Positions 1,760 to 31,698 of a stretch of DNA of 49,222 nucleotides are shown here, piece after piece. The stretch covers positions 1-49,222 of IMG/VR virus record IMGVR_UViG_3300031553_000005, one strand, 5' to 3'. Position numbers and translations under genes: made by a program. This stretch comes from a virus. Numbering within the stretch: the first letter of the stretch is position 1; every line of letters starts with the position of its first letter. The notes beneath the pieces are model-generated. The model made no database searches. It was given only the letters and a program-made list of their open reading frames with translations, and had not been told where the DNA came from.

Positions 1760-1771
1760 GTCTACACCCGT

Positions 1772-1797
1772 CAAGGACTCCGCAAGGACTCCGCAAG
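1772..1797 (+). repeat. Tandem 11-bp repeat CAAGGACTCCG x2.3 carrying two TCCGCAA boxes (putative integrase arm-type sites, P arm)
   Basis: TCCGCAA at 1779 and 1790, 11 bp apart. The same heptamer pair with the same spacing and orientation lies at 2044 and 2055, on the other side of the core. Confidence 0.5.
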
Positions 1798-1813
1798 CAC
1801 CTGCACCCGACTA

Positions 1814-1911
1814 TGGTATCTGGTGGTACACCGTGACCGTGACCGACTCCCCCTCGGCCCGCACGTAACCTGAATTGGTGCATGATATGGCGTATCGTGG
1901 TATCTGGTGGT
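1814..1911 (+). repeat. 14-bp direct repeat TGGTATCTGGTGGT (1814..1827 and 1898..1911) inside attP
   Basis: Exact 14-mer twice within 100 bp of non-coding DNA between the lysis cassette and the tRNA-like core; GTGACC GTGACC tandem at 1832..1843. Confidence 0.45.
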
Positions 1912-1928
1912 CATGTGCCCCGACCGGC

Positions 1929-1973
1929 CTCCGGAGCATGAGGTCACAGGTTCGAATCCTGTTCGGGGTACCA
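1929..1973 (+). other. attP core: 3' portion of a tRNA-Arg(CCG)-like gene (anticodon loop to CCA); not an intact tRNA
   Basis: CTCCGGA (loop with CCG anticodon) GCATG AGGTC ACAGG TTCGAAT CCTGT TCGGGGT A CCA. No D-arm and no matching 5' anticodon stem upstream. The fragment ends exactly where the integrase stop codon begins. Confidence 0.7.
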
Positions 1974-3083: not shown

Positions 3084-3089
3084 TGATGA

Positions 3090-3335
3090 CTATTCTGATT
3101 CGTGCGGCCCAGCTATCTCCTTCAGGTATCTCAGCGCCTCGCCCATGCCACTGAATAAGGCCCAGATTGTGAGACCCCATAGAAAGGCCCCTCCGGCCAT
3201 AATCCAGTGAAGGTCTGTGATCACTTCCCCGGCGGAGATGACGATCAGAAAGGCGGCGGCGATCCCCGCCATGAGCTGGAAGAATCCTATGCCCTGAAGA
3301 ACGGGCGCAACGCTGGCCTGCTTCTTGGCTTTCAT
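3090..3335 (-). CDS. Small membrane protein (2-3 TM), moron
   Basis: 81 aa; hydrophobic segments GIGFFQLMAGIAAAFLIVISA and GGAFLWGLTIWALFSGM; lower-GC DNA; co-oriented 18 nt downstream of the beta-barrel gene. Confidence 0.6.
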   Translation of the reverse strand: MKAKKQASVAPVLQGIGFFQLMAGIAAAFLIVISAGEVITDLHWIMAGGAFLWGLTIWALFSGMGEALRYLKEIAGPHESE

Positions 3336-3352
3336 CGTGGATTCCCTTCGGT

Positions 3353-3949
3353 TCAGTGTGGCCTCTTCGGCTTGCTGCAGAATCCAGCACTTATCCAGAT
3401 GGTATCTGAGTAGACATCAGCAGATATTCCCAGACCCGATAGCCTCGCGTTGAGTCGATTGATTCGTAATCCAAATCCGAGGGGTGGCGCCATGATAAGT
3501 ATGCCCGCACCGTAGCCGATACCGCCCTCTACGTTGATGCCAGCCTTGGGATCAAAGGTCCACGATGAATAGTTGAGGTTGGCATGGATAGTAAGCCAAG
3601 TCTCTGAATTCTGAAATGTCGTGACGTATGCCGGTCCTACCCAGATAACGCCGTGTTGCAGTGACACATCATATCCAGTGATGGGTCGGTAAACACTGAA
3701 GTCATATCCCATGATTAATCCTCGATCGATCCACCAGAAGACAGTCTGAGTGGAAAAGGACAGCTCGGCGCTCATGTCGAAATCCACGCCCGTCTTCTGC
3801 GACGACATACCACCCATGACTGGGCCCGCGCACAAGGTCCACGCGGAAAGGGCACCCTGGGTGGTATCGGGCTGATTCTGGGCGCAGGCGCGAGGGGTAG
3901 TGAGGGGTGAGACGAAGACTAGAAAAGCCGTCAGGATGACACTCTTCAA
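3353..3949 (-). CDS. Secreted outer-membrane beta-barrel-like protein (OmpX/Ail/Lom-type size), moron
   Basis: TTG start preceded by GGAGGAG. Signal peptide MKSVILTAFLVFVSPLTTPRACA|Q (AxA site). The mature part (~175 aa) has alternating aromatic/hydrophobic strands (YDFSVY, VIWVGPAYV, WLTIHANLNY, GYGAGILI, IWISAGF). One hand-counted 60-nt line was 48% GC. Confidence 0.5.
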   Translation of the reverse strand: MKSVILTAFLVFVSPLTTPRACAQNQPDTTQGALSAWTLCAGPVMGGMSSQKTGVDFDMSAELSFSTQTVFWWIDRGLIMGYDFSVYRPITGYDVSLQHGVIWVGPAYVTTFQNSETWLTIHANLNYSSWTFDPKAGINVEGGIGYGAGILIMAPPLGFGLRINRLNARLSGLGISADVYSDTIWISAGFCSKPKRPH

Positions 3950-3996
3950 GGGGGCTCTCCTCCTCTGGTTGTGGGCCGCCTCAATGTTGGCCGCAT

Positions 3997-4440
3997 CTAC
4001 TTCCCCCTGTCATCCGATCCATCAATCATGCGAGCTAGTTCTTCTAGTATGCGGCGGACGGTTCTGGGTTGCATTCCTCGCACAGGCAAATCGGTAGCCG
4101 ATTCGTGGACGCGGCCATCTCCTACGGAGATCTCTATCCCCTCGTATTCGGCGATGAGCTCGGCCCAGGTGACCCCTAGACCGGTAGCGATCTTTATCTG
4201 GGTTTCGGGGCCGGGCATGACGTGTCCATTCTCGATGCGACTGATCTGACTTGCAGCGACCCCCGACCCCTCCGCCAGCTCTGTCTGCTCCATCCCGGCG
4301 CGAACCCGTAAGCGCTTGATGGCATTGCCCATCTGCTTTCGGTTAATCGGCATGGGCGGAGCGTATTCCGTCCTGCGCGCTTGCGCAATGTGAGAGGGCA
4401 CCACAGCACGGCCAGGAATCATTATTGACTTGTCACGCAT
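3997..4440 (-). CDS. CI-like repressor, XRE-family HTH (start uncertain: 4440 or internal ATG at 4353)
   Basis: NAIKRLRVRAGMEQTELAEGSGVAASQISRIENG helix-turn-helix. Divergent from the 4488 gene. No S24 peptidase motif in the C-terminal part. Confidence 0.75.
   Translation of the reverse strand: MRDKSIMIPGRAVVPSHIAQARRTEYAPPMPINRKQMGNAIKRLRVRAGMEQTELAEGSGVAASQISRIENGHVMPGPETQIKIATGLGVTWAELIAEYEGIEISVGDGRVHESATDLPVRGMQPRTVRRILEELARMIDGSDDRGK
4374..4387. promoter_or_regulatory. Candidate operator, inverted repeat TGCGC-N4-GCGCA (copy 1)
   Basis: TGCGCgcttGCGCA; same half-sites as 4449..4462; lies in the divergent cI/cro region if cI starts at 4353. Confidence 0.35.
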
Positions 4441-4447
4441 ATTTCGC

Positions 4448-4477
4448 TTGCGCGCCCGCGCATCGTTCTTGTATTAT
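4448..4477 (+). promoter_or_regulatory. Candidate rightward early promoter (TTGCGC-18 nt-TATTAT)
   Basis: Hexamers at 4448..4453 and 4472..4477, 10 nt upstream of the 4488 ATG. Confidence 0.3.
4449..4462. promoter_or_regulatory. Candidate operator, inverted repeat TGCGC-N4-GCGCA (copy 2)
   Basis: TGCGCgcccGCGCA, overlapping the -35 of the candidate rightward promoter. Confidence 0.35.
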
Positions 4478-4487
4478 CGCCGCACCT

Positions 4488-4691
4488 ATGGATACCACTG
4501 ACCAGATCATCGGAACCCGCGAAGTGGCCGAGCTCATCGGCAAGTCCCAGCGCTGGGTGCAGATGGAAGCCTCTGAGGGCGGTTGTCTCTCGCACATCGC
4601 GCACCATGCTGGCCGGTGGCTCGTATTCCGCCGCTCGGACATCGACGCTTGGCTGGAGGAGCACACGGTCCAGCCTACGGCGTCGCGCTGA
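4488..4691 (+). CDS. Cro-like / excisionase-family (MerR-type, HTH_17-like) DNA-binding protein
   Basis: MDTTDQIIGTREVAELIGKSQRWVQMEASEG...VFRRSDIDAWLEE pattern typical of AlpA/Xis-type HTH; divergent from the repressor. Confidence 0.6.
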   Translation: MDTTDQIIGTREVAELIGKSQRWVQMEASEGGCLSHIAHHAGRWLVFRRSDIDAWLEEHTVQPTASR

Positions 4692-4724
4692 TCCACCCAA
4701 GGCACTACCCGGGGGGAGGATGCC

Positions 4725-5195
4725 ATGAACTACGACCCATCACGCGATCCTGTCTTCCGGGTCCTCCATGAGCTCTATGGAGAGTCCCGGATCAACGCCG
4801 GCATCATCCAGGAGGTCCTGGGGATGGCCCGGCGAACGGCCTTCAACCGCATGGAAGGCATCACTCAGCTGCGGCCGGGTGAGATCCTCGAGCTGAGCGT
4901 GAGGCTGGGCACGCCCCGCCTGCTCAACGCCTGGCTGCGCCACATGGGCTACCCCTACCGGATCCGGCCGGTCCTCACCGCCGATCAGGTGGCCAGACCC
5001 GAGCACATCGCCCAGGCGGAGGTCCGAGCCCTGGGCAAGGCCACTGACACCTACCGCCGCATCAACGAGATCCTGGCCGATAGCCGTGTGACCCGCGAGG
5101 AGCGAGCGGAGATCCACCGGATGGTCGAGGAGCTGGTCGATGAGACCCTGGCGGTGCCGCTGGGTGTGCTGGGGCAGGAGGAGGCCCTGGTATGA
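4725..5195 (+). CDS. Putative CII-like transcriptional regulator
   Basis: 156 aa. HTH-like IIQEVLGMARRTAFNRMEG, followed by a helical C-terminus. Sits immediately after the cro-like gene. Confidence 0.35.
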   Translation: MNYDPSRDPVFRVLHELYGESRINAGIIQEVLGMARRTAFNRMEGITQLRPGEILELSVRLGTPRLLNAWLRHMGYPYRIRPVLTADQVARPEHIAQAEVRALGKATDTYRRINEILADSRVTREERAEIHRMVEELVDETLAVPLGVLGQEEALV

Positions 5196-6938: not shown

Positions 6939-7492
6939 GGTTGGCTCCCGGGAAACCGCTACCCGTCCACCTCTGGCGACGGCTCATCGATTACGTCGAG
7001 AGACGGATCGACACAGCCGGAGACTGCTGGCTGTGGACGGGTAGTAGGAACAGGCTCGGCTATGGTCGAATCATCACGTGCGAGGGCAAGGAGAAGAGGT
7101 ATGACCTCCTTGCCCATCGTGTGGTCTACTTCCTCGCTACTGGTCATGACCCCATCGGCTTCCAGGTCTGTCATTCCTGCGATAACCCATCCTGTGTGAA
7201 TCCTGCCCACCTGTTTCTAGGGTCCGCCGCGGACAACGCTGCAGACGCTAAGGAGAAGATGCGCCACCGCCGGGGTGACGATCACGCCTTCGCGAAGCTT
7301 GACACCAAGACGGTGCTACGGGCGAGGCGGGTCTATCGCAATGGCGGCGTGAGCATGCAGGCGATAGCCGAAGAAGTAGGAATCGACCGACGGACGCTAG
7401 GTGAAGCCATCCGCGGTATCACCTGGGCGCACCTCCCCGAAGCAGTGTCCATCGAAGAACATTCCGAAAAGAGGTCATCATGCGTTGCCTAG
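6935..7492 (+). CDS. HNH endonuclease (HNH_3-type) with C-terminal HTH
   Basis: CWLWTGSRNRLGYGRI...LAHRVVYFLATG...VCHSCDNPSCVNPAHL; C-terminus MQAIAEEVGIDRRTLGEAIRG. Confidence 0.85.
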   Translation: MRLAPGKPLPVHLWRRLIDYVERRIDTAGDCWLWTGSRNRLGYGRIITCEGKEKRYDLLAHRVVYFLATGHDPIGFQVCHSCDNPSCVNPAHLFLGSAADNAADAKEKMRHRRGDDHAFAKLDTKTVLRARRVYRNGGVSMQAIAEEVGIDRRTLGEAIRGITWAHLPEAVSIEEHSEKRSSCVA

Positions 7493-8625
7493 CCACGTCT
7501 GACCTCCATCTCGGTTTTCGCCAGTTCGCGGCTACCGAGGGAGGACGTAATGCGCGTGAACTCGACGTAGAGCACGCTTGGTACCACCTGGTCGATCGCG
7601 CCGTCGAGCTGCAGCCGGATCTCATCACGATTGCAGGCGACGTGTTTCATCATCCACGTTCCGGCTTCCACGCCGTCATGGCCTACCGGGACGGGATCCG
7701 GCGCATGCACCAGAAGACCAGGGCTACGATCGTCATCGTGCAGGGAAACCACGACGCGGTCCGGACCGCTGATGCCCTCTCGCCCATCGTGATCCCGAAC
7801 GACTACGAGCGGGTCCACATCCTCACCGAGCCCGGCCGGGTGTCCTTCGAGACCCAGGCGGGGGAGAAGGTCGCTGTCGCCTGCTTCCCCTTCGTGGGGA
7901 TGGGCGAGCCGAAGACCTACCGGCTCGAGCCCGATCCCGAGTTCAACGTCAACGTCCTGCTGCTCCATGCCGCGGTGAAGTCCTCGGAGAATCCCAAGGC
8001 CCTGCCGTGGTTCTACCAGGGGCCGCACTCGCTGGATGTGGGCCGGGAGGCGGAGCGCTGGGATGTGATCGCCTGCGGCGACTTCCACGAGTACACCCGT
8101 CTCCACCCGGAGCGGGCGGTCTTCTACTCCGGGTCGATCGAGCGGACCTCGAGCAACATCTGGGACGAGCACAAGCCGAAGGGATTCGTGGTCTGCGAGA
8201 CGAAGCTCACCGGGGAGGTCTCGGTCGAGTTCTGCGAGATTCCGACCCGGATGGTCTACGACGAGACCGCCGACGACGGCGACAGCGTCGAGTGTCTGAA
8301 CCTCGGTCTCGAATCCCGGCTTGCGGATCCGTCCACCAAGGACGCGATCACCCGCCTGAAGGTCGACGCCTTCCCCCGCTCCCAGCGGGACGCCATCGAC
8401 TGGTCCCTGGTCCGCCAGCTCAAGGCCCACTGCCTGCACTTCTACCTCGACCTGCGTTTCGCCACCGACGAGAGCGCGGAGATCTCCGACCGCCGGCAGG
8501 CCCGGAGCCTCCAGGAGGAGGCCACCGAGTTCCTGGCCGGCGAGGAGGAGGCGGTGCTGGAGTGCGCCCTGGGCTACCTGCAGCCCCCGATTGAGGATCT
8601 CGAACCCGAGGAGGTGGAGGCATGA
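7480..8625 (+). CDS. sbcD: SbcD/Mre11-family metallophosphoesterase nuclease
   Basis: Calcineurin-like motifs in order: SDLHLG, AGDVFH, GNHD, LLLHA, CGDFH. Confidence 0.9.
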   Translation: MRCLATSDLHLGFRQFAATEGGRNARELDVEHAWYHLVDRAVELQPDLITIAGDVFHHPRSGFHAVMAYRDGIRRMHQKTRATIVIVQGNHDAVRTADALSPIVIPNDYERVHILTEPGRVSFETQAGEKVAVACFPFVGMGEPKTYRLEPDPEFNVNVLLLHAAVKSSENPKALPWFYQGPHSLDVGREAERWDVIACGDFHEYTRLHPERAVFYSGSIERTSSNIWDEHKPKGFVVCETKLTGEVSVEFCEIPTRMVYDETADDGDSVECLNLGLESRLADPSTKDAITRLKVDAFPRSQRDAIDWSLVRQLKAHCLHFYLDLRFATDESAEISDRRQARSLQEEATEFLAGEEEAVLECALGYLQPPIEDLEPEEVEA

Positions 8626-8924
8626 GCAAGGTCAAGTTCGCTGGGTTCACGCCCGAGGAGATGGGGCACGTCGACAAGATCACCACCCGCGCGATCCCGC
8701 TTTTCGCGAAGGTCGGCGTCCACGTCGACCGGCTTGACGTCGTGATGGACCTGGCGGCTACGCACAAGACATGCCCGCTCGACCTCGCTGCTATGGCAGA
8801 CGGCCGGGAAGAAGACTTCGCCCACGACATCGGCGGAATCCGCCGCCACCTCAACCGGATCACGGGAGAGCTCGAAGACTGCTTCGTACCTCGGTTCGCC
8901 CGCCGCACGGCGGTGCCGGTATGA
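8622..8924 (+). CDS. Conserved-looking hypothetical protein inserted between sbcD and sbcC
   Basis: 100 aa; ATGA overlaps at both ends (8622 and 8921). Confidence 0.6.
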   Translation: MSKVKFAGFTPEEMGHVDKITTRAIPLFAKVGVHVDRLDVVMDLAATHKTCPLDLAAMADGREEDFAHDIGGIRRHLNRITGELEDCFVPRFARRTAVPV

Positions 8925-11368
8925 AGCTCATCGACCTGCACCTGAAAAGCTTCCGCCAGCACCGGGATTCCTACATCCGCTTCCCCGAGGAAGGCCTGAT
9001 CGGGATCCTCGGCCCCAACGAGGGGGGCAAGTCCACCGTGCTGGAGGGGATCACCTTCGCCCTCTACGGCGCACCGGCCACCCGGGGCACCGTCGGCTCC
9101 ATCCGCTCCAACAGGGCGGTGGGCAGCGAGCAGGCCTCGGTGGAGCTGCGCTTCGAAGTGGGCGGGAAGACCTACCGGATCCGCCGGACCCAGAAGCAGG
9201 CCTGGATGTGGGAGGGTGAGGAGCAGATCGCCCGCTCCATCTCCGGGGTTAACTCCCGGGCCGCTCGCATCGTGGGGATGACTCTGGAGGAGTTCCAGTC
9301 GACCTACCTGGCAACTCAGAAGGATCTGGGCCGGCTGAAGTCCCTGGGGGGCGTGGAGCGCAGGCAGTTCGTGCTGGGGGTGGTAGGACTGCGCCGGGTC
9401 GACGAGGCGCTGCGGGCCTGCCGGGCCCGCAAGAACACCCTGGCCACCGAGCGGGAAGGCCTGGAGGCCGGCCTGGGGCCGCGTGAGCCGCTCGAGCAGA
9501 CGGTGGCAGAGGCTTCCGATGGGATCGAGAAGGCACTGGCGGCTGCTGGGGATGCCAACGACAGACTGGATGAAGCTACCGGGATTGCAGGTGATGCGAA
9601 CGACCGGCTCGCCGAGTCCACAACCCGCAAGGAGAAGTACGAGACCCTCCGTCGGCAGCAGGAGCAGGCCGGCCGGGACCAGAGCACCGCGCTCGAGGAA
9701 CTGAAGACTCTCGGCGAGCGCATCGCCCGGGCCGGGGAAGCTGTTGAGCGGATCGCCGATGCCGAGGCCCAACTGGCAGCCCTACCCGAGCTGCGGGAGC
9801 GCTATGTCGAAGGCAAGGAGGCCAAGGCCCGGGCGGAGGAGCGGAGGCGCCTGGTCCACCAGGTGGGCACCCTGGCCCAGGAGCTCGAGCAGATGCAGGG
9901 CCGGATCACCGAGCTGCGCACCCAGCTGGGGGAGGAGCCGGCCGCGGCCGACACCCTCCAGGCCCAGCTCGCCAGTCTCCAGGCCCGGCTCGAGAAGCTC
10001 AAGTCCGAACGACTCGAGCAGATCGCCCTGGCCAAGTCCAGTGCCGAGGTCGCCCTGGCCGAGGCCGAGAAGGCGGCTGCCAAAGCCTCCAAGATCGAGA
10101 AGCTGGGCACCGAGGGGGAGTGCCCGACCTGCACCCGGCCCCTGGGGGAGCACTACCGCCCCGTCCTGGAGGGTCTGCGCGAGATCGAGCGAACCCACCT
10201 GGCCGACCACAAGGATCTGGCCGGCAAGGCCCGCGAGCTCTCCATGGTGCCCGACATCGAGATGGACCTGGACCTCGAGCTCGGTCAGCTCCGCAAGCAG
10301 CTGGAAGAGGCGCAGTTGGCGGCCGAGCGTCACCGGACCGCCACGACACGCATCACCGAGATCGAGGCCGAGATCTCCCGGCGGACCGAGCAGAAGGCCG
10401 AGGTGGAGAAGACCCTGGCTGGGATCCCCAAAGCCCAGGTGGACGAGGAGGTCCTTAAGCACCAGGCGGCGCGCATCACCCAGCTGGAGGAGCTGGAACG
10501 CCGCACCGCCCAGGATCGGGCCACCGCGGCCACCCTGGAGGCCCTGGAGCAGGACCGGGCCCGGGCGGAGGAGAAACGGGCCCGGGCGGAAGCCGCTATC
10601 AACGAGCTCGATGAGGCCATCACCGGGACCGGCTTCAGCCCGATTGCCCACCAGGACCTGGTCACACAGGCCGAGTCCGCCCGCAGGAGCCACGAGGAGG
10701 CCAAGCTGGCCCAGGTGAGGGCCGAGGAGGCGCTCAAGGCCGCCCAGGAGGCCCACAGGCGCGCCAGGAAGGCCCTGGAGGACTGGGACGGCCGGGCAGG
10801 GCGCCTGCACGAGGTGGCCGAGGACCTGCGGATCCACGAGCGGACCGCGGCCCGTCTGAACGACTTCCGGACCGCCATGGCCTCCTCGATCCGGCCCGAG
10901 CTCGAGGAACTGGTCAGCGCCTTCGTCCACACGCTCACCGACGGCCGGCACGAGTCGGTCACCCTCACCGAGGACTTCGAAGTGGTCCTGCAGGAGGGAG
11001 GCACCGACGTCGAGGTCGTCTCCGGAGGGGCTGAGGACGTCACCAGCCTGGCCCTGCGCCTGGCAATCAGCCACCTGATCGCCTCCCGGGCCGGGCATCC
11101 CCTGAGCCTGCTGATCCTGGACGAGCCCTTCGGGAGCCTGGACGAGGTGCGTCGACGTAACGTGGTCGACCTGCTGCAGCACCTGCGCGGGGTCTTCGCC
11201 CAGGTCCTGGTCATCTCCCACGTCGAGGACACCAAGGACGCGGTCGACTACGCCCTGCACGTGGACTTCGACGAGGGGCGGGGGACCAGCGTGATCACGC
11301 CCAGCTGGGACATGCAGGGGCAGGAGACGGAGACAGAGCAGGTCGAGGCTGAGTTGGCCACAGCCTGA
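8921..11368 (+). CDS. sbcC: SbcC/Rad50-family SMC-like ATPase with zinc hook
   Basis: Start MKLIDLHLKSF. Walker A GPNEGGKST. Long Ala/Glu/Arg coiled coil with a central CPTC hook (10121..10132). Signature SGGAEDVTSLALRLA, Walker B LLILDEPFGSLD, and ISHV. Confidence 0.9.
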   Translation: MKLIDLHLKSFRQHRDSYIRFPEEGLIGILGPNEGGKSTVLEGITFALYGAPATRGTVGSIRSNRAVGSEQASVELRFEVGGKTYRIRRTQKQAWMWEGEEQIARSISGVNSRAARIVGMTLEEFQSTYLATQKDLGRLKSLGGVERRQFVLGVVGLRRVDEALRACRARKNTLATEREGLEAGLGPREPLEQTVAEASDGIEKALAAAGDANDRLDEATGIAGDANDRLAESTTRKEKYETLRRQQEQAGRDQSTALEELKTLGERIARAGEAVERIADAEAQLAALPELRERYVEGKEAKARAEERRRLVHQVGTLAQELEQMQGRITELRTQLGEEPAAADTLQAQLASLQARLEKLKSERLEQIALAKSSAEVALAEAEKAAAKASKIEKLGTEGECPTCTRPLGEHYRPVLEGLREIERTHLADHKDLAGKARELSMVPDIEMDLDLELGQLRKQLEEAQLAAERHRTATTRITEIEAEISRRTEQKAEVEKTLAGIPKAQVDEEVLKHQAARITQLEELERRTAQDRATAATLEALEQDRARAEEKRARAEAAINELDEAITGTGFSPIAHQDLVTQAESARRSHEEAKLAQVRAEEALKAAQEAHRRARKALEDWDGRAGRLHEVAEDLRIHERTAARLNDFRTAMASSIRPELEELVSAFVHTLTDGRHESVTLTEDFEVVLQEGGTDVEVVSGGAEDVTSLALRLAISHLIASRAGHPLSLLILDEPFGSLDEVRRRNVVDLLQHLRGVFAQVLVISHVEDTKDAVDYALHVDFDEGRGTSVITPSWDMQGQETETEQVEAELATA

Positions 11369-21368: not shown

Positions 21369-21946
21369 GCACGGCGAAGAAGTCGAAGAAGAAGGCTGCC
21401 GCCAAGAAGAAGGCTCCAGCGAAGAAGAAAGCGCCAGCACGGAAGAAGAAGAACAAGACCGCGACCAAGAAAAAGACGGCCACGAGGAAGAAGAAGGCTC
21501 CGGCTAAAAAGAAGGTCGTGAAGAAGTCCTCAGCCAAGAAGGCGACCGCGAAGAAGAAGGCTCCGGCTAAAAAGAAGACCGCCGCCAAGAAAAGCAAGGG
21601 TGGACGGCCGCCGCTCAAACTCGATAAGCGGCAGATCGAGACCCTAGCCAAGATCAACTGCACCCATGAAGAGATAGCTGCCGTCATGGGCTGCTCGACC
21701 GACACAATCGCTCGCCGTTATGCGGAGCTAATAAACAAGGCTCGACTGGACGGAAGAAGCAGTCTGCGCCGTGCCCAGTGGGCGAAGGCGCTTGGCGGCA
21801 ATCCCACGATGTTGATTTGGCTAGGCAAGCAGGAGCTGGGGCAGAGAGACCGCCTCGAGCACGAGCACTCCGGGCCCGATGGAGGACCCATCCCGGGGCA
21901 GATCAACGTTCGACTGGTCAAGTCTGATGAGCCTGGCGACGGTTGA
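21365..21946 (+). CDS. terS: Terminase small subunit with about 78-aa Lys/Ala-rich histone-H1-like N-terminal extension
   Basis: KKAPAKKK-type repeats, then GGRPPLKLDKRQIETLAKINCTHEEIAAVMGCSTDTIARRY...GGNPTMLIWLGKQELGQRD (TerS HTH pattern); immediately upstream of terL. Confidence 0.7.
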   Translation: MSTAKKSKKKAAAKKKAPAKKKAPARKKKNKTATKKKTATRKKKAPAKKKVVKKSSAKKATAKKKAPAKKKTAAKKSKGGRPPLKLDKRQIETLAKINCTHEEIAAVMGCSTDTIARRYAELINKARLDGRSSLRRAQWAKALGGNPTMLIWLGKQELGQRDRLEHEHSGPDGGPIPGQINVRLVKSDEPGDG

Positions 21947-23132
21947 GGTCGAACTCCCGGAGGCCCTGAGCTTCCTGCTCGACCCCCCCCTGGGGAGTGT
22001 CCGCTACCGGGTGGCCTACGGAGGGCGGGGGAGTGCTAAGTCCTGGAACTATGCCCGGGCGCTCCTGCTCCACGGCACCCAGACACCCCTAAGAATCCTC
22101 TGCGCCCGGGAATACCAGGTCTCCATCCAGGATAGTGTCCACCAGCTACTATCCGACCAGGTGAGCGCAATGAGCCTGGACGGATTCTATGCGGTGCAGA
22201 AGAACGCTATCACCGGCATGAACGGCACCGACTTCCTCTTCAAGGGACTCCGAAGGAACATCCGGGAGATCAAGTCGACCGAGGGCATCGACATCTGCTG
22301 GGTGGAGGAGGCCGAGGCCGTCAGTGACCAGTCCTGGCGGATCCTGATCCCCACGGTCCGTAAGCCCGGCTCGGAGATCTGGGTGTCGTTCAACCCCGCC
22401 CTGGCATCTGATCCCACCTATCGCCGCTTCGTTCAGGATCCCCCCTCCCGTAGCATCGTCCGGTTTGTGTCCTGGAAGGACAACCCCTGGTTGCCGGAGG
22501 TGCTCCAGAACGAGGCCGAGGAGCTCCGCCGGAAAGATCCCGAGGCCCATGCCCACGTCTGGGGGGGCGAGCCCTGGCAGCGCTCTGACGCCCAGGTGCT
22601 GGCCGGCAAGTGGACGGTCGAGGACTTTGAGCCCCTGGAGAGCTGGGACGGTCCCTACTTCGGTGGCGATTGGGGCTTCGCCCTGGACCCCACCGTCCTC
22701 GTGAAGGTCTGGATCGCGGACTCTCGGCTCTACCTCGAGTACGACAACGGCGCCCCCCAGATGACCCTGGATGATATCGAACGAGAGTGGCGCAAGGTCC
22801 CGGATGCCGGCAAGTACGTGATCCGGGCGGACAGCGCGAGGCCGGAGACGATCAACGAGATGGCCTCCCGCGGCTGGCGTATCGAGGGCGTGAAGAAGTG
22901 GCCGGGATCCGTCGAGGACGGGATCGAACACCTCCGTAGCTATGAGAAGATCGTCATCCACCCGCGGTGCCGGCGGGCCCGGGAGGAGGCCCGGCTCTGG
23001 AGCTACAAGACCGACCCCCGCACCGACGACGTGCTGCCCAAGCTCAAGGACGGCTTCGAGCACGTCTGGGATGCCGTCCGCTATGCCCTGGCACCGATCA
23101 TCATGAAGGGCACGAACTTCATGTTCCGATGA
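21927..23132 (+). CDS. terL: Terminase large subunit (PBSX/Terminase_3-like)
   Basis: Walker A YGGRGSAKS, Walker B-like ICWVEEAE, nuclease half GGDWGF...IRADSARPE...VWDAVRYA. Alternative upstream start at 21879. Confidence 0.85.
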   Translation: MSLATVEVELPEALSFLLDPPLGSVRYRVAYGGRGSAKSWNYARALLLHGTQTPLRILCAREYQVSIQDSVHQLLSDQVSAMSLDGFYAVQKNAITGMNGTDFLFKGLRRNIREIKSTEGIDICWVEEAEAVSDQSWRILIPTVRKPGSEIWVSFNPALASDPTYRRFVQDPPSRSIVRFVSWKDNPWLPEVLQNEAEELRRKDPEAHAHVWGGEPWQRSDAQVLAGKWTVEDFEPLESWDGPYFGGDWGFALDPTVLVKVWIADSRLYLEYDNGAPQMTLDDIEREWRKVPDAGKYVIRADSARPETINEMASRGWRIEGVKKWPGSVEDGIEHLRSYEKIVIHPRCRRAREEARLWSYKTDPRTDDVLPKLKDGFEHVWDAVRYALAPIIMKGTNFMFR

Positions 23133-25584: not shown

Positions 25585-26288
25585 ACACCCGCGACCAGTG
25601 GGCCGAGATCGCGATCGCCGCCTACTCGGCCATGGTCACTGATCGCATGCACTTTGCCCAGGCAGCCTACCGGGACGGGGAGTGGTACTGCATCGGCGGC
25701 AGCAGCGGGAAGACCATCAATGCCGAGGAGTTCAATCCCGAACTGGGGAACCTATTGGCCCGAACCCTACTCGAGCCTGTCGGCCAGTGGTGCGTGCTCT
25801 GGTGGAAGCATCCCAGGATGGGCAGGCAGGCATTCAACATCGCAAAGAAGTGGATCGCTACCCACAAGCCCGATGTGCGTTGGATTCCCGATCGCCCCAT
25901 CAGCCGGGCGAATGAGATCGGCATGGCCGCACCCTTCTGGCAGGCCTGCAGGAGTCGAAGGGTGGTGGCTGTCGGACCTGCACACATGGCCAATCTGGAT
26001 CTGTTCGACATCGCCGAGCATATCATCGTGCCCCCCAGGGTGGCCTGGAAGCACACCAACAGTGTCTGCGAGCAGGTCCTGACCGTCTATCGACCGCATG
26101 ATCTGATTCTCTTTGCCGCCGGCATGGGCTCGAACCTGATGATATGGAAGCTCTGGCCGCAGCTGAGAGGCAAGGCAACGCTGCTGGATATCGGAGCCGC
26201 GCTGGACCCCTACTGTGGCCACTTCAGCCGAGGCATCTTCCGCGAACCCGGATGGCAGGAGAACATCATGCCCAGGAATATCCCGTGA
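25563..26288 (+). CDS. GT-D (DUF1792)-like glycosyltransferase candidate
   Basis: YRDGEWYCIGG (compare the RxGDGE motif) and LFAAGMGSNLMIWKLW...ATLLDIGAALDPY. Confidence 0.4.
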   Translation: MVHPAAINTRDQWAEIAIAAYSAMVTDRMHFAQAAYRDGEWYCIGGSSGKTINAEEFNPELGNLLARTLLEPVGQWCVLWWKHPRMGRQAFNIAKKWIATHKPDVRWIPDRPISRANEIGMAAPFWQACRSRRVVAVGPAHMANLDLFDIAEHIIVPPRVAWKHTNSVCEQVLTVYRPHDLILFAAGMGSNLMIWKLWPQLRGKATLLDIGAALDPYCGHFSRGIFREPGWQENIMPRNIP

Positions 26289-27307
26289 GGCTGCTCATCA
26301 CTGGGCACACGGGCTTCAAGGGCGCCTGGCTGAGCCTTCTGGCCGAACAGGAGGGCCACGAGGTGGGTGGATATGGTCTGTCCCGAACCGCCGGCCCGTC
26401 GTTTTATAAGGTGGCCCGCATCCGAGAGCACCTGGCCTTTGAGAGGCGAGAAGACGTTACGGACATGCTCGCACTCCGACAGGCGGTGGCCGCCTTCCGT
26501 CCTGAGGTTGTCTTTCATCTCGCGGCCCGCGCCATTCTCCTGGAGTCGTTCGGTGCCCCGGTGGGGACCATACGCAACAACGTGATTGGAACAGCCGCGG
26601 TCCTGGAAGCGGTAAGGCACTGCCCGGGTGTTGCTGGAACCGTCATTGTGACCACCGACAAGGTCTACCGCAACGACGGAAGAAGCGATGGATATAAGGA
26701 GACAGATCGACTGGGTGGACTGGATCCTTATGGAGCAAGCAAGGCGGCCGCAGAGCTGGTGGTGGACAGCTATCGACACACCTATGCCCTGAATGTTGCC
26801 ACGGCCCGGAGCGGGAATGTTATCGGAGGGGGCGATTGGGGACCGCGCAGGTTGGTACCCACCTGCTTGGAGGCATTCAGCAGGGGCGAAGAGCCGACCA
26901 TCTATGATGCTGCCCGCCCGTTCCTGCATGTGCTGGATACCCTGCGTGGATACCTGCTGCTGGCTGAGAGGCTATGTGTGGAACCGGAGATCTCCGGGGG
27001 ATACAACTTCGGTCCCGGTCAGGTAACTCCACTGTATGAGGTTGCTGACCATATCGCAGCCCGCATGGGTGGGTTCTACCGGAAGGCGGGCAAACCCCCG
27101 GGCGAAGCATCCATGCTTGCGCTTGATAGCAGCAAGGCCCGAAAGGTCCTCGGGTGGGCGCCACGATGGGGCATCGCCGAGATACTGGATCGGACCGTGG
27201 AGTGGTATCAGGCATGGCGTCTGGGCTCAGACATGGAACTAGTGAGTATCGAGCAGATTGACGCACACCGCAGTGAGTCGGTCCGCGAAGAGGATGTGGT
27301 GGTATGA
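26285..27307 (+). CDS. Extended SDR NDP-sugar 4,6-dehydratase (CDP-glucose 4,6-dehydratase-like)
   Basis: GTGA overlap; LITGHTGFKGAWLSLLL-type N-terminus (ITGHTGFKGAWL), VFHLAA, TTDKVY, YGASKAAAE (YxxxK). Confidence 0.7.
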   Translation: MRLLITGHTGFKGAWLSLLAEQEGHEVGGYGLSRTAGPSFYKVARIREHLAFERREDVTDMLALRQAVAAFRPEVVFHLAARAILLESFGAPVGTIRNNVIGTAAVLEAVRHCPGVAGTVIVTTDKVYRNDGRSDGYKETDRLGGLDPYGASKAAAELVVDSYRHTYALNVATARSGNVIGGGDWGPRRLVPTCLEAFSRGEEPTIYDAARPFLHVLDTLRGYLLLAERLCVEPEISGGYNFGPGQVTPLYEVADHIAARMGGFYRKAGKPPGEASMLALDSSKARKVLGWAPRWGIAEILDRTVEWYQAWRLGSDMELVSIEQIDAHRSESVREEDVVV

Positions 27308-27867
27308 GGGGCATCGTGTTGGGCGGCGCAGCCTGTATCTGGAAGGACGTGGACCGGCTGGAGGCCATGATCGGCCAGCAGTGGAATGAGATCGTGGTGG
27401 CGGCGAACGATATCGGGTGTCATTGGCCGCGGGAGATGCATGGCTGGTGTTCACTCCATCCCGAGAAGATGGACCAGTGGGTGAAAATCCGGGAGCGTAA
27501 GAGGCTGCCCGGAGGATTCATCACCTATGCAAAAGACGGGAGAAAGAGAAGGGGCATCGACGCCACGGTGCGCCACCGATTCGGAAGCGGCTCGTCAGGT
27601 CTACTGGGCGTCTCAGTGGCCCTACATCTTGGATGTACGAAGATCGTGCTGTGCGGAATCCCCATGACCCGGGAGCCCTACTTCGCGGAGTCCGAGGTCC
27701 ACCCTAAGGGTAAGGCATTCTCCTCGGCGGACTCCCACTGGAGAAAGTGGCTGCTGTATGCGGAGAAGATGCAGGGCACCGTTAAGTCGATGAGTGGACG
27801 CACCAGGGACCTACTTGGAGAACCTACACTGGAATGGTTGGGTGAAGACGATGGCAAAGACCCCTGA
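27304..27867 (+). CDS. DUF115/Maf-like (MptE-like fold) putative glycan transferase
   Basis: ATGA overlap; IVLGGAACIW...VVAANDIG...GSGSSGLLGVSVALHLGCTKIVLCGIPM. Confidence 0.35.
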   Translation: MRGIVLGGAACIWKDVDRLEAMIGQQWNEIVVAANDIGCHWPREMHGWCSLHPEKMDQWVKIRERKRLPGGFITYAKDGRKRRGIDATVRHRFGSGSSGLLGVSVALHLGCTKIVLCGIPMTREPYFAESEVHPKGKAFSSADSHWRKWLLYAEKMQGTVKSMSGRTRDLLGEPTLEWLGEDDGKDP

Positions 27868-29347
27868 GTATCGAGGCGGCGGATGGTATCAGCTTCCCGA
27901 TGGGAGCAAAGTCAAAGGTAGGCAGGCAGCCCTTCGGGCGACGAACACGGAAGCCGATACGCATACGCTTCAACGGTTGGACTTCGCTTCCCGGGCGGGC
28001 CTACAGTACGGAGAAGATCGGGATATCTACAAGGTTGCGGGCTACAAGAAGACGCCGACCTTCAAGGATTATTGGGCCTACTACGACCGCCACCCCATCG
28101 CAGGCCGCATTGTCGACCTTGCAGCCAAGACCACCTGGCGTGAGCCCCCGGATATCGTTGAGCCCGAGAAGGAAGATGGCACCGAGTTCACTAAGGCGGT
28201 CACGGAGATGGCGGATCGGCTAAAGCTATGGAGCCGGTTCGAGTCTGCGGATAGGCTGAGCCGTATCGGTCAATACAGTGTGCTGTTCATCGGCGTGAAG
28301 GGCGGAACAGATGATATGAGCATACCGCTGGAACGTCTCTCGGATCCCGATGATGTGGCCTATCTGATGCAGTACTCTGAGCAGTATGCGAAGATCGTCG
28401 AATGGGTGACCGACCCTACCGACGAGCGATTCGGCCTGCCCAAACTCTACGAGATCGACTTCTCCCGCCGGAACTCCAAGTTCAGGGTCAGACGCTCCAA
28501 GGTCCACTGGTCGAGGGTGCTGCACATCGCAGAGGACCCTCTCGAGGACGACGTATATGGACGCCCCATCCTCAAGCGTGTCCTCAACACGATCTTCAAC
28601 GATGACAAGGTGGATGCCGCGAGTGCGGAAGCGTTCTGGCAACTCGCGGACAAGATACTCCAACTGAAGATCGACCCTGAAGCGCAACTGTCCGAGGACG
28701 ACAAAGATGATGTAGACGAGAAACTGCAGTTACTCTACCACGACCTGCGCAAGTATTTCACCCTTCAGGGTGGCGAACTCTCCTGGCTGGGTGGAGAGAC
28801 CGCCGACCCTACGGCGATATCCGAGATCCTGGCCATGAAGATGGCAGCTGGCAGTGGATATCCCCGGAGAATCCTGTTCGGGGCCGAGCAGGGAGAACTT
28901 GCCTCCAGTCAGGACGAGCGCAACTACCGGGGCACGATATCCGAGCGGCAGGAACAACATGCAGAGCCCAACATGGTCCGGGCCTTCATTGATCGGCTCA
29001 TAGAACTCGGTGCGCTACCGACACCAGGACCAGAGGGCTATGATGTGTTGTGGCCCGAACTCTACGAGGCCACCGACGAGGAGAAGGCCACGACCGCCAA
29101 GGCTCGTGCCGACACCGCCAAGATACTCACACCCATAGGGGGCGATCCCTATGAGCTAGTCACGGTCGACGACGAGGGCATGGTACGGTTGCGCACCTCA
29201 GAAGAGGTGTGGGCCGAGCGGGAAGCCATGCCCGAGCCCGAACCCGGATTCATCCTTCCGCCCGAACCCGGGGGCGAAGAAGAAGAAGAAATCGCAGCTC
29301 GTAGCCGCTGGTGGCCACAGAGGAAGAGGAGGCCGCATGAAAGCTGA
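27851..29347 (+). CDS. Portal protein (DUF1073-type)
   Basis: 498 aa. Acidic, Glu-rich C-terminus. Lies upstream of the Mu F-like gene. YGRPILKRV segment. Alternative GTG start at 27794. Confidence 0.7.
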   Translation: MAKTPEYRGGGWYQLPDGSKVKGRQAALRATNTEADTHTLQRLDFASRAGLQYGEDRDIYKVAGYKKTPTFKDYWAYYDRHPIAGRIVDLAAKTTWREPPDIVEPEKEDGTEFTKAVTEMADRLKLWSRFESADRLSRIGQYSVLFIGVKGGTDDMSIPLERLSDPDDVAYLMQYSEQYAKIVEWVTDPTDERFGLPKLYEIDFSRRNSKFRVRRSKVHWSRVLHIAEDPLEDDVYGRPILKRVLNTIFNDDKVDAASAEAFWQLADKILQLKIDPEAQLSEDDKDDVDEKLQLLYHDLRKYFTLQGGELSWLGGETADPTAISEILAMKMAAGSGYPRRILFGAEQGELASSQDERNYRGTISERQEQHAEPNMVRAFIDRLIELGALPTPGPEGYDVLWPELYEATDEEKATTAKARADTAKILTPIGGDPYELVTVDDEGMVRLRTSEEVWAEREAMPEPEPGFILPPEPGGEEEEEIAARSRWWPQRKRRPHES

Positions 29348-29519
29348 AGACCTGGCCAAGCTCGGACAGAACGCAAAGGCCTTCGCCAAGGCCTATGTGC
29401 AGCTGAAGGAAGAGCTGATCCGTCAGGGGGTTGAGGCTGAGGAGGCGAAGGTGGTCGCTCGCTCGGCGGCCATGATGACCATCTTCAATCCCGACGAGGA
29501 GAAGCCGTGGGACACGTAG
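29337..29519 (+). CDS. Small helical hypothetical protein
   Basis: 60 aa, overlapping portal stop and Mu F-like start. Confidence 0.45.
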   Translation: MKAEDLAKLGQNAKAFAKAYVQLKEELIRQGVEAEEAKVVARSAAMMTIFNPDEEKPWDT

Positions 29520-31504
29520 TCTGTGTTCACCATGCCCACAATAGGGCTGCCGGTCCTTCTTCCCGCACTCACCGTATCGTTCGGCGCATTGCGGACCGCT
29601 ACGGATCCAACATCGCGGACGCCTTCCTGACTGCTCTCTCCCGATTGGATGCGGGCATCGATAAGGTGGAACTGTCAAGTGCGGTCGCCTCAGGGGATGT
29701 CAATGCCATCGTGGCCGCTATCGGCCCGTCGCGGTTGGGGGCGATCTTCGCCGGCGGTGACTCACTTTCGAAGGTCTTGCAGGACACGGCGGCGGCCAGC
29801 GGCGGGTTGGGTATGGATGTTCTGAGCGAGGTCACCGGTATGCAGGCCAGCTTCAATGCCGTGGATCCCAATGTGGTGATGTTCGCCCGCGAGAGGGCTG
29901 CCCGCCTGGTGGTCGATGTGACCGAGGACGTGATCGAGGCTGTGCGTATCGTGATTGCTGCGGGTGCTGCTGAGGGGCTGACCACCGTGCAGCAAGCGCG
30001 AGCAATCCGGGAGGTTGTGGGCCTGCCGCCCAACTGGGCCGAGGCTCCCTCACGGCTTGCCTCCGAGCTTCGTGCGGGGCGATTCACCTCCAGCCGACGC
30101 CTTTCAGCAATCGACAAAGCCCGTATCCGCAAGAGACTGAAAGAGGGGACGATCACCGAGGACTTCATCTCCGAGATACAGGCGAATTACGCCCGCAGCC
30201 TGACCAATCGCAGAGCACTCAACATCGCCCGCACCGAGAGCGCTACCTCGGCCAATCATGGTATGCGTACCGGCTGGAGACAGGCACGAGATCAGGGTGT
30301 GCTGTCCGAGGACGTGAAGCGCATCGTGGTAGTCACCCACGACGAGGAGTTGAGGGAGACACATGCCGCCGTCCCGTTCATGAATCAGGGGGGCGTAGGC
30401 CTGGATGAACCCTTCGAAACCCCCTGGGGGCCTCTCATGGGCCCGCCCTGGGATCCCGACCCTTACAACTGCCTACTGCCCGGCACTCCCGTAAGGGGTC
30501 GGTTCGTGGCTGGGGTTCGTGCCCACTATCGCGGCGAAGTAATCACCATCCATACTGCCGGGGGGCGCAAGCTCGCCGTCACCTCGAATCACCCAGTACT
30601 CACCCGCGACGGCTTCGTTGCGGCCCAGCGTGTGCGCGATGGACACCAGCTTCTCTGCTACAGCGGGGACGCGCATGGGGCAACCGCGCCGGGGGCGCAC
30701 GAACACGGGGCGCCAGCCGCTGTTGACGATGTGTTCCATGCGCTCGGCAAGCTTTGGGGCCAGGAGCTCCGAGACCTTTCTGTTGAAGATCTCCACGGCG
30801 ACGCGGCAGGCACTGATGGTAAGGTCGATGTTGTACGGCCCGACAGGGTATTGCTGGTCGACGGGCTCGCCCAACCTCTCGATGGCGGCGGCAATAGCAT
30901 TCTCGTACTTACCACGCCGCCCACCATTTCGGTAGCGAGTGAGGGCTCGGGCGGCCATGGCCTCGGAGCTGTCCACGCGACCGCGCGCAGCGGCGTGGGC
31001 GGGGCCGAGCTGCCTGCGAACGGCTTCAGGGTCCGCCTTGAGTTGTTGCCATTTCAGCTTCTCGGCTTCGGAGCGCCCCCGGAGTTGTATCCCGGCGCGT
31101 TTGAGTCGATGGGCAATCACGCTACGGTCGTGCCCGGTTCTCTCGCTGATCGCCTTGACCGATTCGCCCGAGAGATAGGCGGCGCTGATGCCGGGCACGT
31201 CGATCTTCTTCCAAAGGTGGTGCTTCCGCCCAACGGAGGACTTCATCGGCCGGGCCGGCAGCCTCCATTCGATACGCCTCTGTCTCACGGTGGCAGTACT
31301 GACTCCAAGCTCGCTCGCGACCTCTTGGAGCGTCATGCTGGATTGGTAGAGCTGGACGAAGTGGTCGCGGTCGATGTCAGCTCGTGGCATGGGCATGTGT
31401 ACGACCTCCAGTCGGTTACGGGCTTTAATATCGCATCTGATGTCTTTGTTAGCAACTGCCGCTGTGGTGAAGGGCTGATCTTCCCTGGGGGCGGGGTGCT
31501 GTGA
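29507..31504 (+). CDS. Mu F / SPP1 gp7-like minor head protein interrupted by an intein
   Basis: Phage_Mu_F-like NRRALNIARTESATSANHG...; the N-extein ends PWDPDPYN and the C-extein resumes CRCGEGLIF, recreating the family NCRC motif. Confidence 0.8.
   Translation: MGHVVCVHHAHNRAAGPSSRTHRIVRRIADRYGSNIADAFLTALSRLDAGIDKVELSSAVASGDVNAIVAAIGPSRLGAIFAGGDSLSKVLQDTAAASGGLGMDVLSEVTGMQASFNAVDPNVVMFARERAARLVVDVTEDVIEAVRIVIAAGAAEGLTTVQQARAIREVVGLPPNWAEAPSRLASELRAGRFTSSRRLSAIDKARIRKRLKEGTITEDFISEIQANYARSLTNRRALNIARTESATSANHGMRTGWRQARDQGVLSEDVKRIVVVTHDEELRETHAAVPFMNQGGVGLDEPFETPWGPLMGPPWDPDPYNCLLPGTPVRGRFVAGVRAHYRGEVITIHTAGGRKLAVTSNHPVLTRDGFVAAQRVRDGHQLLCYSGDAHGATAPGAHEHGAPAAVDDVFHALGKLWGQELRDLSVEDLHGDAAGTDGKVDVVRPDRVLLVDGLAQPLDGGGNSILVLTTPPTISVASEGSGGHGLGAVHATARSGVGGAELPANGFRVRLELLPFQLLGFGAPPELYPGAFESMGNHATVVPGSLADRLDRFAREIGGADAGHVDLLPKVVLPPNGGLHRPGRQPPFDTPLSHGGSTDSKLARDLLERHAGLVELDEVVAVDVSSWHGHVYDLQSVTGFNIASDVFVSNCRCGEGLIFPGGGVL
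30470..31456 (+). mobile_element. Intein (329 codons) in the Mu F-like gene
   Basis: Begins CLLPGTPVRG (block A), contains VTSNHPVLT (block B TxxH), and ends HGHVYDLQSVTGFNIASDVFVSN followed by +1 Cys. Confidence 0.75.
30473..31396 (-). CDS. Antisense-encoded homing-endonuclease candidate: two HTH segments plus Vsr/DUF559-like PD-(D/E)xK nuclease
   Basis: ATG at 31396 preceded by GGAGG (8-nt spacer). High GC3 on this strand. HTH-like segments LQEVASELGVSTATVRQRR and VKAISERTGHDRSVIAHRLKRAG. Nuclease-like YENAIAAAIERLGEPVDQQYPVGPYNIDL...VAVEIFNRK...GWRPVFVR. Confidence 0.65.
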   Translation of the reverse strand: MPMPRADIDRDHFVQLYQSSMTLQEVASELGVSTATVRQRRIEWRLPARPMKSSVGRKHHLWKKIDVPGISAAYLSGESVKAISERTGHDRSVIAHRLKRAGIQLRGRSEAEKLKWQQLKADPEAVRRQLGPAHAAARGRVDSSEAMAARALTRYRNGGRRGKYENAIAAAIERLGEPVDQQYPVGPYNIDLTISACRVAVEIFNRKVSELLAPKLAERMEHIVNSGWRPVFVRPRRGCPMRVPAVAEKLVSIAHTLGRNEAVAGEYWVIRGDGELAPPGSMDGDYFAAIVGTNPSHEPTPYGSAGQ

Positions 31505-31698
31505 GCACAACTCAAACCGAGAGGCTCACTGAGTCGGCCCGCAATGCACTGGCGTATTTCGAGCGGCGTCTACGTGATGGGCACAGTGGCAGCATTACGT
31601 TTGAATGTTTAGAGGGTGGTGTGCGGGACATCAAAGAAAGCCGCACAGTTAAGTTAAAGGAGTTGAACGGGAAGAAGTGGCTATCTCATAACACTTGA
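31501..31698 (+). CDS. Hypothetical protein
   Basis: GTGA overlap with the Mu F-like stop; 65 aa; lower GC. Confidence 0.45.
   Translation: MSTTQTERLTESARNALAYFERRLRDGHSGSITFECLEGGVRDIKESRTVKLKELNGKKWLSHNT

Follow-up and report, generated by a model that had tools for sequence, protein, structure and literature searches.

We analysed a virus record of 49,222 nucleotides (IMG/VR record IMGVR_UViG_3300031553_000005, positions 1 to 49,222; this whole stretch is called the window below) in which the gene for a MuF-like head-morphogenesis protein contains an intein on the plus strand and, opposite it, a gene for a putative homing endonuclease (HEN) on the minus strand (Table 1). The gene order of the window, terminase, portal, MuF, DUF2213 and tail, is that of a tailed phage, and the portal gene (PF06381) lies directly upstream of the MuF-like gene. 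The plus-strand open reading frame (ORF) reads ...PWDPDPYN, followed by CLLPGTPVRG...VTSNHPVLT......HGHVYDLQSVTGFNIASDVFVSN and then by CRCGEGLIF..., and its N-extein matches PHROG 3517, 'head morphogenesis', over aa 18-318 (E=4.7e-31). Intein-free MuF homologues (P0016-P0018) are 56-63% identical to it over the N-extein; these three, together with P0024 and P0029, read ...N/L-CRC... uninterrupted at the insertion site, which in the homologues P0015 and P0035 is occupied by an intein. Removal of the intein in silico, for which the predicted junction in the MuF gene is ...CCTTACAAC|TGCCGCTGT... (also written ...GACCCTTACAAC|TGCCGCTGTGGT...), yielded a match to Phage_Mu_F (PF04233) across the junction (E=3e-4; 21.8 bits, below the 29.6 cut-off), a family that close homologues of the protein bear. 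Pfam returned no MuF match on the unspliced precursor; PHROGs and the spliced sequence do match. Many close MuF homologues (P0020-P0034) have long C-terminal extensions with toxin-type domains (Zeta_toxin PF06414, ADP-ribosyltransferase PF03496), compared with a C-extein of 15 residues only in the window.

The insert has the residues needed to read it as an intein: C1 (TGC, 30470-30472), T38-S-N-H41 in block B, H309-VYDL in block F, the terminal N329 (AAC, 31454-31456) and C+1 (TGC, 31457-31459), with Asn-Cys also spanning the upstream extein/intein junction (30467-30472) and with Ser, not His, as the penultimate residue. The same splicing blocks are found in 11 aligned loci, in all 11 of which the junction between intein and C-extein is N|C. 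A 20-sequence profile (A3) matches the RecA, RadA, NrdJ-1, KlbA and DnaB intein structures over blocks B and N4, best of all the RecA intein (E=1.5e-7), and phmmer aligned the C-terminal region of the intein to PI-PkoII 449-520 and KlbA 134-156; the intein also matches the RecA intein, and its Pfam Intein_splicing match is weak (23 bits). The AlphaFold2 (AF2) model has confident beta-rich ends around a centre with a predicted local distance difference test score (pLDDT) of 20-35, and when it was used as a Foldseek query, 48 of the 50 top matches were inteins or Hedgehog Hint domains (probability up to 1.00). The insert is, as judged from its sequence, a class-1 intein of the Hint fold that would be expected to splice. 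The original prediction, made from the letters alone, had placed an intein with blocks A, B, F and G at the MuF N|CRC site and held that its excision recreates NCRC; the Hint-type matches and the empty sites in homologues, for which it had proposed to look, bear out the first point, and the gain of a PF04233 match, though sub-threshold, agrees with the second.

The minus-strand frame whose codons are in exact register with those of the intein is open over 30473-31510. The HEN gene within it runs from inside block F back through N4, B and A to a stop complementary to the Leu2 codon CTA (30473-30475), immediately next to the Cys1 codon; the predicted ATG, the GGAGG 8 nt from it and the stop touching Cys1 can all be read as described. 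Its GC content at codon positions 1/2/3 is 0.67/0.50/0.78, beside 0.64-0.67/0.42-0.43/0.70-0.76 in the neighbouring genes and 0.78/0.49/0.66 in the central plus frame; its third positions are thus GC-rich, as had been predicted, and like those of its neighbours. Among DNA-binding modules, Pfam found helix-turn-helix (HTH) families only (Sigma70_r4_2, HTH_38, HTH_23 and others) and no NUMOD-type modules, and there is a weak match to the restriction-endonuclease-like MTES_1575. A 14-sequence HEN profile matches the tandem-HTH structure 2lvs (E=1.6e-6) and the DUF559 endonuclease-like 3hrl (E=6e-6); E. coli Vsr scores E=0.19, and there is no sequence-level match to 3r3p, the catalytic domain of I-Bth0305I, at E<=10. 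The AF2 model of the HEN (mean pLDDT 80) comprises two three-helix modules, a helical linker and an alpha/beta core, and Foldseek relates it to 2lvs (probability 0.99), to 3r3p (probability 1.00, TMt 0.60), to the Vsr structures 1cw0 and 1vsr (0.94 and 0.91) and to 3hrl (TMt 0.72, rmsd 2.8 Å). By these profile and structure matches the HEN belongs to the Vsr-like PD-(D/E)xK group, in keeping with the two HTH segments and Vsr/DUF559-type nuclease proposed at the outset and obtained by the Foldseek check of the 307-aa protein that had been suggested.

Residues Y188, N189, D191 and E202 of the HEN are invariant. A His that follows the VAVE strand (GGxWH) is kept in about half of the relatives, and the window, which reads VAVEIFNRK, is without it. 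At the C-terminal end, GEYWVIRG is the mirror of TSNHPVLT, and there the plus-strand residues are conserved and the antisense residues follow; this tail is probably non-functional, with no constraint of its own discernible in the alignment. The overlap of intein and HEN gene had been noted at the outset as almost coextensive. The layout is real, but the extent of the overlap is in part an effect of high GC, and the last ~47 antisense codons mirror blocks A and B.

The start signals of the HEN gene lie within intein codons. The HEN begins, in 19 of 19 loci, with a codon complementary to the His codon of block F, which is CAT in 17 and CAC (giving GTG) in two; this His codon is CAT in all high-GC phages, where CAC would be expected. 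In the window the GGAGG lies opposite the block-F codons Asp312-Leu313-Gln314, to which it is complementary, confirming that the Shine-Dalgarno (SD) sequence sits inside splicing-block codons. An SD-like GGAG/GAGG occurs 8-9 nt upstream of the start in 16 of 19 loci, at position -12/-13 (-11 to -15 overall), and is made by the complement of (D/N)-L-(Q/E) codons, the plus-strand Leu codon being CTC in 16 of 18. Since both start and SD mirror block-F codons, the most conserved C-terminal motif of the intein doubles as ribosome-binding site and start of the HEN. A stretch picked out by eye on the minus strand, TTGCTA-19 nt-TATTAA (31455..31425, ~28 nt upstream of the HEN ATG), is AT-richer and mirrors block G; as a promoter it falls outside the spacing criterion and is too weak to rely on. 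A terminator-like hairpin on the plus strand (30753-30773) is at chance level (one found, 0.8 expected).

We relied on distant relatives to find the coding strand in the middle of the element. Since blastn matched the locus to no GenBank phage and so supplied no close relative, dN/dS was replaced by codon-position identity and synonymous-codon tests in a codon alignment of 11, then 19, loci (median pairwise identity 24%). With the 307-aa HEN as query, tblastn against 50,697 phage records found 59 records (identity 25-35%, coverage reaching 96%); the plus-frame translation of 30641-31360 found none in the same records at E<=0.01. This difference indicates that conservation in the centre of the element lies in the antisense frame, mean identity there being 0.10-0.17 for the plus frame against 0.20-0.33 for the antisense frame. 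Centre columns show conserved antisense residues with free synonymous codons (four for Gly, five to six for Arg, both families for Ser) and varying mirror residues, and columns that mirror blocks F/G and N4/B/A show conserved plus-strand residues with varying plus third positions; in the N-terminal splicing region the plus frame is more conserved than its mirror. The check on strand selection that had been proposed thus comes out for the antisense frame in the centre, apart from one island described below. Conservation, codon pattern and fold together show the HEN to be a genuine gene. The predicted passenger linker of ~240 aa has to be shortened to about 150 aa (intein aa ~130-275); aa ~82-128 carry a plus-frame signal of their own.

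The arrangement is widespread. HEN matches come from phages of Gordonia, Mycobacterium, Rhodococcus, Pseudomonas, Klebsiella, Vibrio, Cronobacter, Escherichia, Edwardsiella, Aggregatibacter/Haemophilus and Idiomarinaceae. The tblastn matches to Gordonia, Mycobacterium and Rhodococcus phage MuF loci, with E down to 9e-24, are always antisense, and in Gordonia phages Fosterous, Vivi2, Malisha and others HEN homologues lie under MuF genes at 29-32% identity (E 1e-21 to 1e-24). In 18 of 18 phage records inspected, the match is antisense to a long coding sequence (CDS) that bears a MuF-like, minor head or head-morphogenesis annotation; the exact register is kept in all 18 and in two metagenome contigs inspected, where the gene caller had chosen the antisense gene, and the arrangement persists in phages of 42-47% GC. 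Two of the 59 records, KMB36 among them, annotate the host CDS as 'minor head protein with inserted intein'. Thirteen called HEN proteins are present in a database clustered at 90% identity, two of them named 'very-short-patch-repair endonuclease' by JGI. A DNA pattern taken from the dual-constrained core (Table 1) was found in at least 120 IMG/VR contigs, 118 of 120 with a homologous antisense ORF; among the contigs listed, each of the two ORFs reaches 200 codons or more in 110, the +1 context is most often CRC, and the plus frame is unbroken from HGD to block G under a strict motif in at least 81 of the 110, most of the remainder passing by inspection. As this sample is biased for the core codons, it was excluded from the core-codon test. 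A profile search of 1.84 billion cluster representatives returned at least 1,696 HEN clusters at E<=1e-30 and 6,879 at E<=1e-10, these being clusters at 50% identity (among them proteins P0039-P0183). Nearly all of 30 sampled top matches end with the mirror-of-block-B tail, which places them inside inteins as well, and their N-terminal HTH repeats number about two to six.

Three members depart from the common pattern or from its annotation. The MuF homologue P0019 (L141, 1501-3417 on the plus strand, with the antisense match at 2254-3081 on the minus strand) has an intact NCRC and carries a related intein with an exact-register HEN at a second site, ..NIARTE|C...TGN|TLRAS.. (ARTE|T), which suggests that the composite element has reached a new target elsewhere in the MuF gene. 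In L005 the JGI gene caller took the HEN (4001-4747, plus strand) and a truncated downstream part of the host gene, and the true host ORF (1175-4897, minus strand) is open through the HEN. The antisense ORF of Rhodococcus phage REQ3 (L019, 1881-2507) has only 208 codons and is without HTH modules, perhaps because it is a HEN in decay or a minimal one.

Table 1. Features of the MuF-like gene, its intein and the antisense homing-endonuclease gene in the window (aa, residue numbers of the intein or HEN)
Feature	Position	Strand	Details
MuF-like head-morphogenesis ORF	29507..31504	+	665 codons, read from sequence
N-extein of the MuF-like protein	29507..30469	+	321 codons; putative GTG start
Class-1 intein	30470..31456	+	329 codons, Cys1 ... 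Ser-Asn, then Cys+1; at the N|CRC site
N-terminal splicing region	30470..30661	+	Block A (CLLPGTPV), block B (TSNH, 30581-30592), N4 (GFVAAQRVRDGHQLL); AF2 pLDDT 63-89
Plus-frame conserved island, intein aa 82-128	30713..30853	+	Consensus P..IE.VF..L ... D[FL]HGD ... V.VV; antisense to the nuclease core
Candidate dual-constrained core	30788..30802	both	Plus D-L-H-G-D / minus V-A-V-E-I (catalytic strand with Glu202); synonymous-site test
Putative mirror-image passenger linker, intein aa ~130-275	30857..31294	+	AF2 pLDDT 20-35
C-terminal splicing region	31295..31456	+	Helix, block F (HVYDL, 31394-31408), block G (...VFVSN); AF2 pLDDT 61-82
C-extein and stop codon	31457..31504	+	CRCGEGLIFPGGGVL; intein-free homologues contiguous, ...N-CRC(G/S/A)EGL(I/V)F
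HEN gene	30473..31396	-	307 codons and stop; exact codon register with the intein frame
Shine-Dalgarno sequence GGAGG	31409..31405	-	8 nt upstream of the ATG at 31396
Two helix-turn-helix modules, HEN aa 10-43 and 67-100	31097..31369	-	Pfam Sigma70_r4_2 25.9 bits, HTH_38 25.5 bits
Vsr/DUF559-like PD-(D/E)xK nuclease core, HEN aa 176-260	30617..30871	-	Asp191 at 30824-30826, Glu202 at 30791-30793
C-terminal tail of the HEN ORF	30476..30616	-	Mirror of intein blocks B and A; pLDDT <50 for aa 283-307

Two other parts of the window were noted in passing. A gene resembling those for NAD-dependent epimerases and GDP-mannose-4,6-dehydratases (26144-27307, plus strand) lies between the large terminase (21879-23132) and portal (27794-29347) genes, an unusual location for a sugar-modifying gene. 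In the early region a metallophosphoesterase gene (7480-8625) adjoins one for an SbcC/Rad50-like ATPase (8771-11368), both on the plus strand, and the two apparently encode an SbcCD-type nuclease pair.

The most reasonable explanation of the locus, to which we assign a probability of roughly 0.8, is a composite mobile element consisting of a contiguous class-1 intein in a MuF-like gene with its HEN on the complementary strand in exact register. The precursor would be translated through a disordered mirror-image linker of ~150 aa, after which the Hint ends would splice the intein out and restore ...N-CRC...; the HEN would be made from an antisense transcript and, during co-infection, would cut intein-free MuF alleles near N|CRC, so that recombinational repair would copy the intein together with the HEN gene into them. 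An independent description of the same arrangement in actinophages (Gosselin, Arsenault & Gogarten, bioRxiv 10.1101/2025.01.02.630785) counts in favour of this explanation. Several points weigh against it. The overall confidence of the intein model is low (pLDDT 48), and the intein is ~31 residues shorter before block B than the RecA, DnaB and KlbA inteins, so its competence to splice is not self-evident. The window HEN, being without the His after the VAVE strand, may be catalytically impaired, and a promoter scan of the minus strand upstream of the HEN found no sigma-70-like promoter. At the 63% GC of the window, open frames are only weakly improbable (P about 0.03 each), and we infer splicing, antisense transcription, translation and cleavage from sequence.

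Some of these points would fit a locus of the same anatomy in which the element is immobile in the window phage, the HEN being dead or unexpressed and the intein a vertically inherited passenger. We regard this as unlikely, although it is the alternative that survives best. Many relatives keep the His that the window HEN has not, the promoter scan was empty, blastn showed no near-identical copies in other phages, and several of the VSR-like HENs in the actinophage study look vertically inherited. However, the HEN ORF is intact over 307 codons with Y188, N189, D191 and E202 kept, its codon composition is host-like and it has a strong SD and an ATG. The His is likewise absent from many other intact family members and so is perhaps non-essential, and the nearest extein relatives are intein-free while a more distant one has the intein, a distribution that fits gain or loss by homing.

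The original prediction had left open whether the intein is contiguous, with a passenger linker that mirrors its own HEN gene, or functionally split, that is, a fractured gene in which the MuF halves are made separately and joined by trans-splicing, with the open plus frame incidental. Fractured genes with a Vsr-like HEN between split-intein halves do exist (Dassa 2009, PMC2677866), and a 63%-GC genome keeps an exact-register frame open fairly easily (P about 0.03). We counted the codons whose mirror is a stop (TTA, CTA and TCA) in 11 loci against each phage's own Leu and Ser codon usage. The HEN genes contain none at all, with a summed log10 chance of -28; individually, the chance of finding none is 4e-8 in Vibrio H2 (47% GC), 4e-6 in Aaphi23 (43%), 3e-6 in 1N2-2, 8e-4 in KMB36, 1.5e-3 in ES2 and 0.03 in the window, and avoidance in the remaining high-GC phages is not significant. 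Across the HEN gene the plus frame has exactly one mirror-stop codon, the one that forms the HEN stop, with probabilities down to 2e-11. In exact register each strand need avoid just three codons, which makes the overlap workable. Relatives of 43-53% GC keep the plus frame open at probabilities of 1e-5 to 1e-11 given their amino-acid content, so that read-through is selected, and the one-strand layout with stops and intergenic spacers seen by Dassa is not found in the window. Selection therefore maintains both frames in low-GC relatives, which argues for an expressed HEN, and by these codon counts a contiguous intein is favoured over a split one, to which we attach very little weight. The contiguous form with a mirror linker is thus the part of the earlier alternatives that stands, with the amendment that the centre is not wholly passenger, given the D-[FL]-H-G-D island.

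Long open exact-register antisense frames are common in GC-rich genes, but that the HEN is such a chance frame, with the central plus frame a real novel in-frame intein domain, is next to impossible in view of the 59 versus 0 tblastn records, the 1,696 clusters at E<=1e-30, the synonymous-codon pattern, the persistence in 42-47%-GC phages and a confident nuclease/HTH model set against a disordered plus-frame model. An assembly chimera or inversion artefact, conceivable in a single JGI metagenome contig and the subject of another check that had been proposed, can be dismissed with equal confidence, for loci of this architecture, with this register and these junctions, recur in at least 120 IMG/VR contigs as well as in 18 genomes of cultured phages that were sequenced independently.

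Opposite the nuclease core, the plus frame has, unexpectedly, a conserved island. In 56 non-redundant IMG/VR loci the plus-strand consensus after N4 is vP..IedVf.Al ... edFHGDG..geV.VV.adrlL, with nothing further until block F, and the AF2 pLDDT of the island is 65-73 for aa 81-100. A synonymous-site scan flagged two kinds of column only, Hint-block mirrors and a cluster in the nuclease core. In the latter, the V-A-V codons across 19 divergent loci are GTC in 13 of 13, GCC in 18 of 18 and GTG in 15 of 15 (P = 6e-7, 2e-9 and 1e-7). Among 12 representatives less than 40% identical the same codons are fixed in 9/9, 11/11 and 9/9, compared with two to five codons each at 12 conserved control columns, and the frozen synonymous positions span phages of 42-69% GC. 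A plus-strand Phe in the island is also kept while the antisense residue alternates between Lys and Glu. We considered whether conservation of the island might be a mere mirror of HEN conservation and rejected this for the HGD codons, since a mirror cannot freeze synonymous third positions; HGD codons aside, such mirroring likely explains much of the remaining island conservation. The frozen codons suggest that the D-[FL]-H-G-D motif reflects true two-strand coding. A profile search against known Hint structures found no match for the island beyond N4. Perhaps the island is a structural element, now displaced, of an unusually short Hint domain. We tentatively propose, at somewhat less than even odds, that ~45-85 codons (~30617-30853) are functional on both strands, encoding the HEN catalytic core on the minus strand and, on the plus strand, N4 and an island needed for splicing.

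The arrangement was thought to be undescribed when the locus was first read, and this did not hold. The actinophage study introduced above reports antisense VSR-like HENs in full inteins of minor capsid proteins, linked to 3R3P by HHpred; our literature search found the arrangement described nowhere else, and a search on 'MupF intein' found nothing. The window element resembles those elements in being an unsplit intein in a MuF/SPP1-gp7-type minor capsid protein, with a Vsr-like antisense ORF at the usual HEN position and an unstructured plus frame there, and it is a further instance of this recently described kind that adds little beyond one more member. Unlike the actinophages, the window is from an uncultured phage without DNA match to GenBank phages, its HEN ORF begins within block F and extends back across N4, B and A, the family reaches phages of Pseudomonas, Klebsiella, Vibrio, Cronobacter, Escherichia, Edwardsiella, Aggregatibacter and Idiomarinaceae, and a plus-frame motif is conserved within the nuclease core. 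What may be new at the level of the family is its breadth beyond actinophages, including phages of Proteobacteria, the invariable exact register and the avoidance of stops on two strands; the initiation signals formed by the block-F mirror and the dual-constrained nuclease core may be further new points.

Comparison with other known systems places the element among several kinds of nested homing gene. Antisense LAGLIDADG HENs have been known in inteins since 1998/2002, in Synechocystis DnaX and a Chloroflexus SpoVR-like protein (Gorbalenya 1998; Gogarten 2002; as cited in bioRxiv 10.1101/2025.01.02.630785); as described there, they likewise place a HEN opposite a contiguous intein but differ in nuclease family and hosts. 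In the fractured genes of Dassa, a free-standing Vsr-like/EDxHD HEN lies between split-intein halves, with all three ORFs on the same strand and separated by stops and spacers, whereas in the window one ORF of 665 codons makes up the host gene and the HEN lies on the opposite strand. The HENs of those genes and I-Bth0305I, for which the EDxHD motif including its His was defined (Taylor et al. 2011, PMC3239194), share with the window HEN a phage Vsr-like nuclease, N-terminal DNA-binding modules, the canonical HEN insertion point and a fold matching 3r3p; they differ in having NUMODs where the window HEN has HTH modules, and the EDxHD His of the I-Bth0305I type is unconserved in the window HEN family. 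Same-strand, out-of-frame HENs hidden in phage insertion elements (ShiLan domain HNH, PMC11855218, and an endonuclease VII-like HEN in frame 3) similarly overlap a translated insertion, but in a shifted frame of the same strand rather than antisense in exact register.

The family has consequences for annotation, in that gene callers give either the long head-protein ORF or the antisense HEN and, in L005, truncate the host gene. Since only one strand is reported, thousands of such elements would be mislabelled as 'hypothetical protein', 'very-short-patch-repair endonuclease' or an over-long MuF. The family also provides a well-replicated natural case of long antisense overlapping genes in which the constraint on each strand can be read from synonymous sites, and it bears on how inteins gain HENs ('splicing first', through invasion by a free-standing homing endonuclease gene). 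If the dual-coded core is real, the family, with more than 1,600 clusters, would be an extensive natural example of two folded domains encoded antisense to each other in one register, and it would offer a mechanism that couples the fates of intein and HEN: the two would be locked together, and decay of either would damage its partner.

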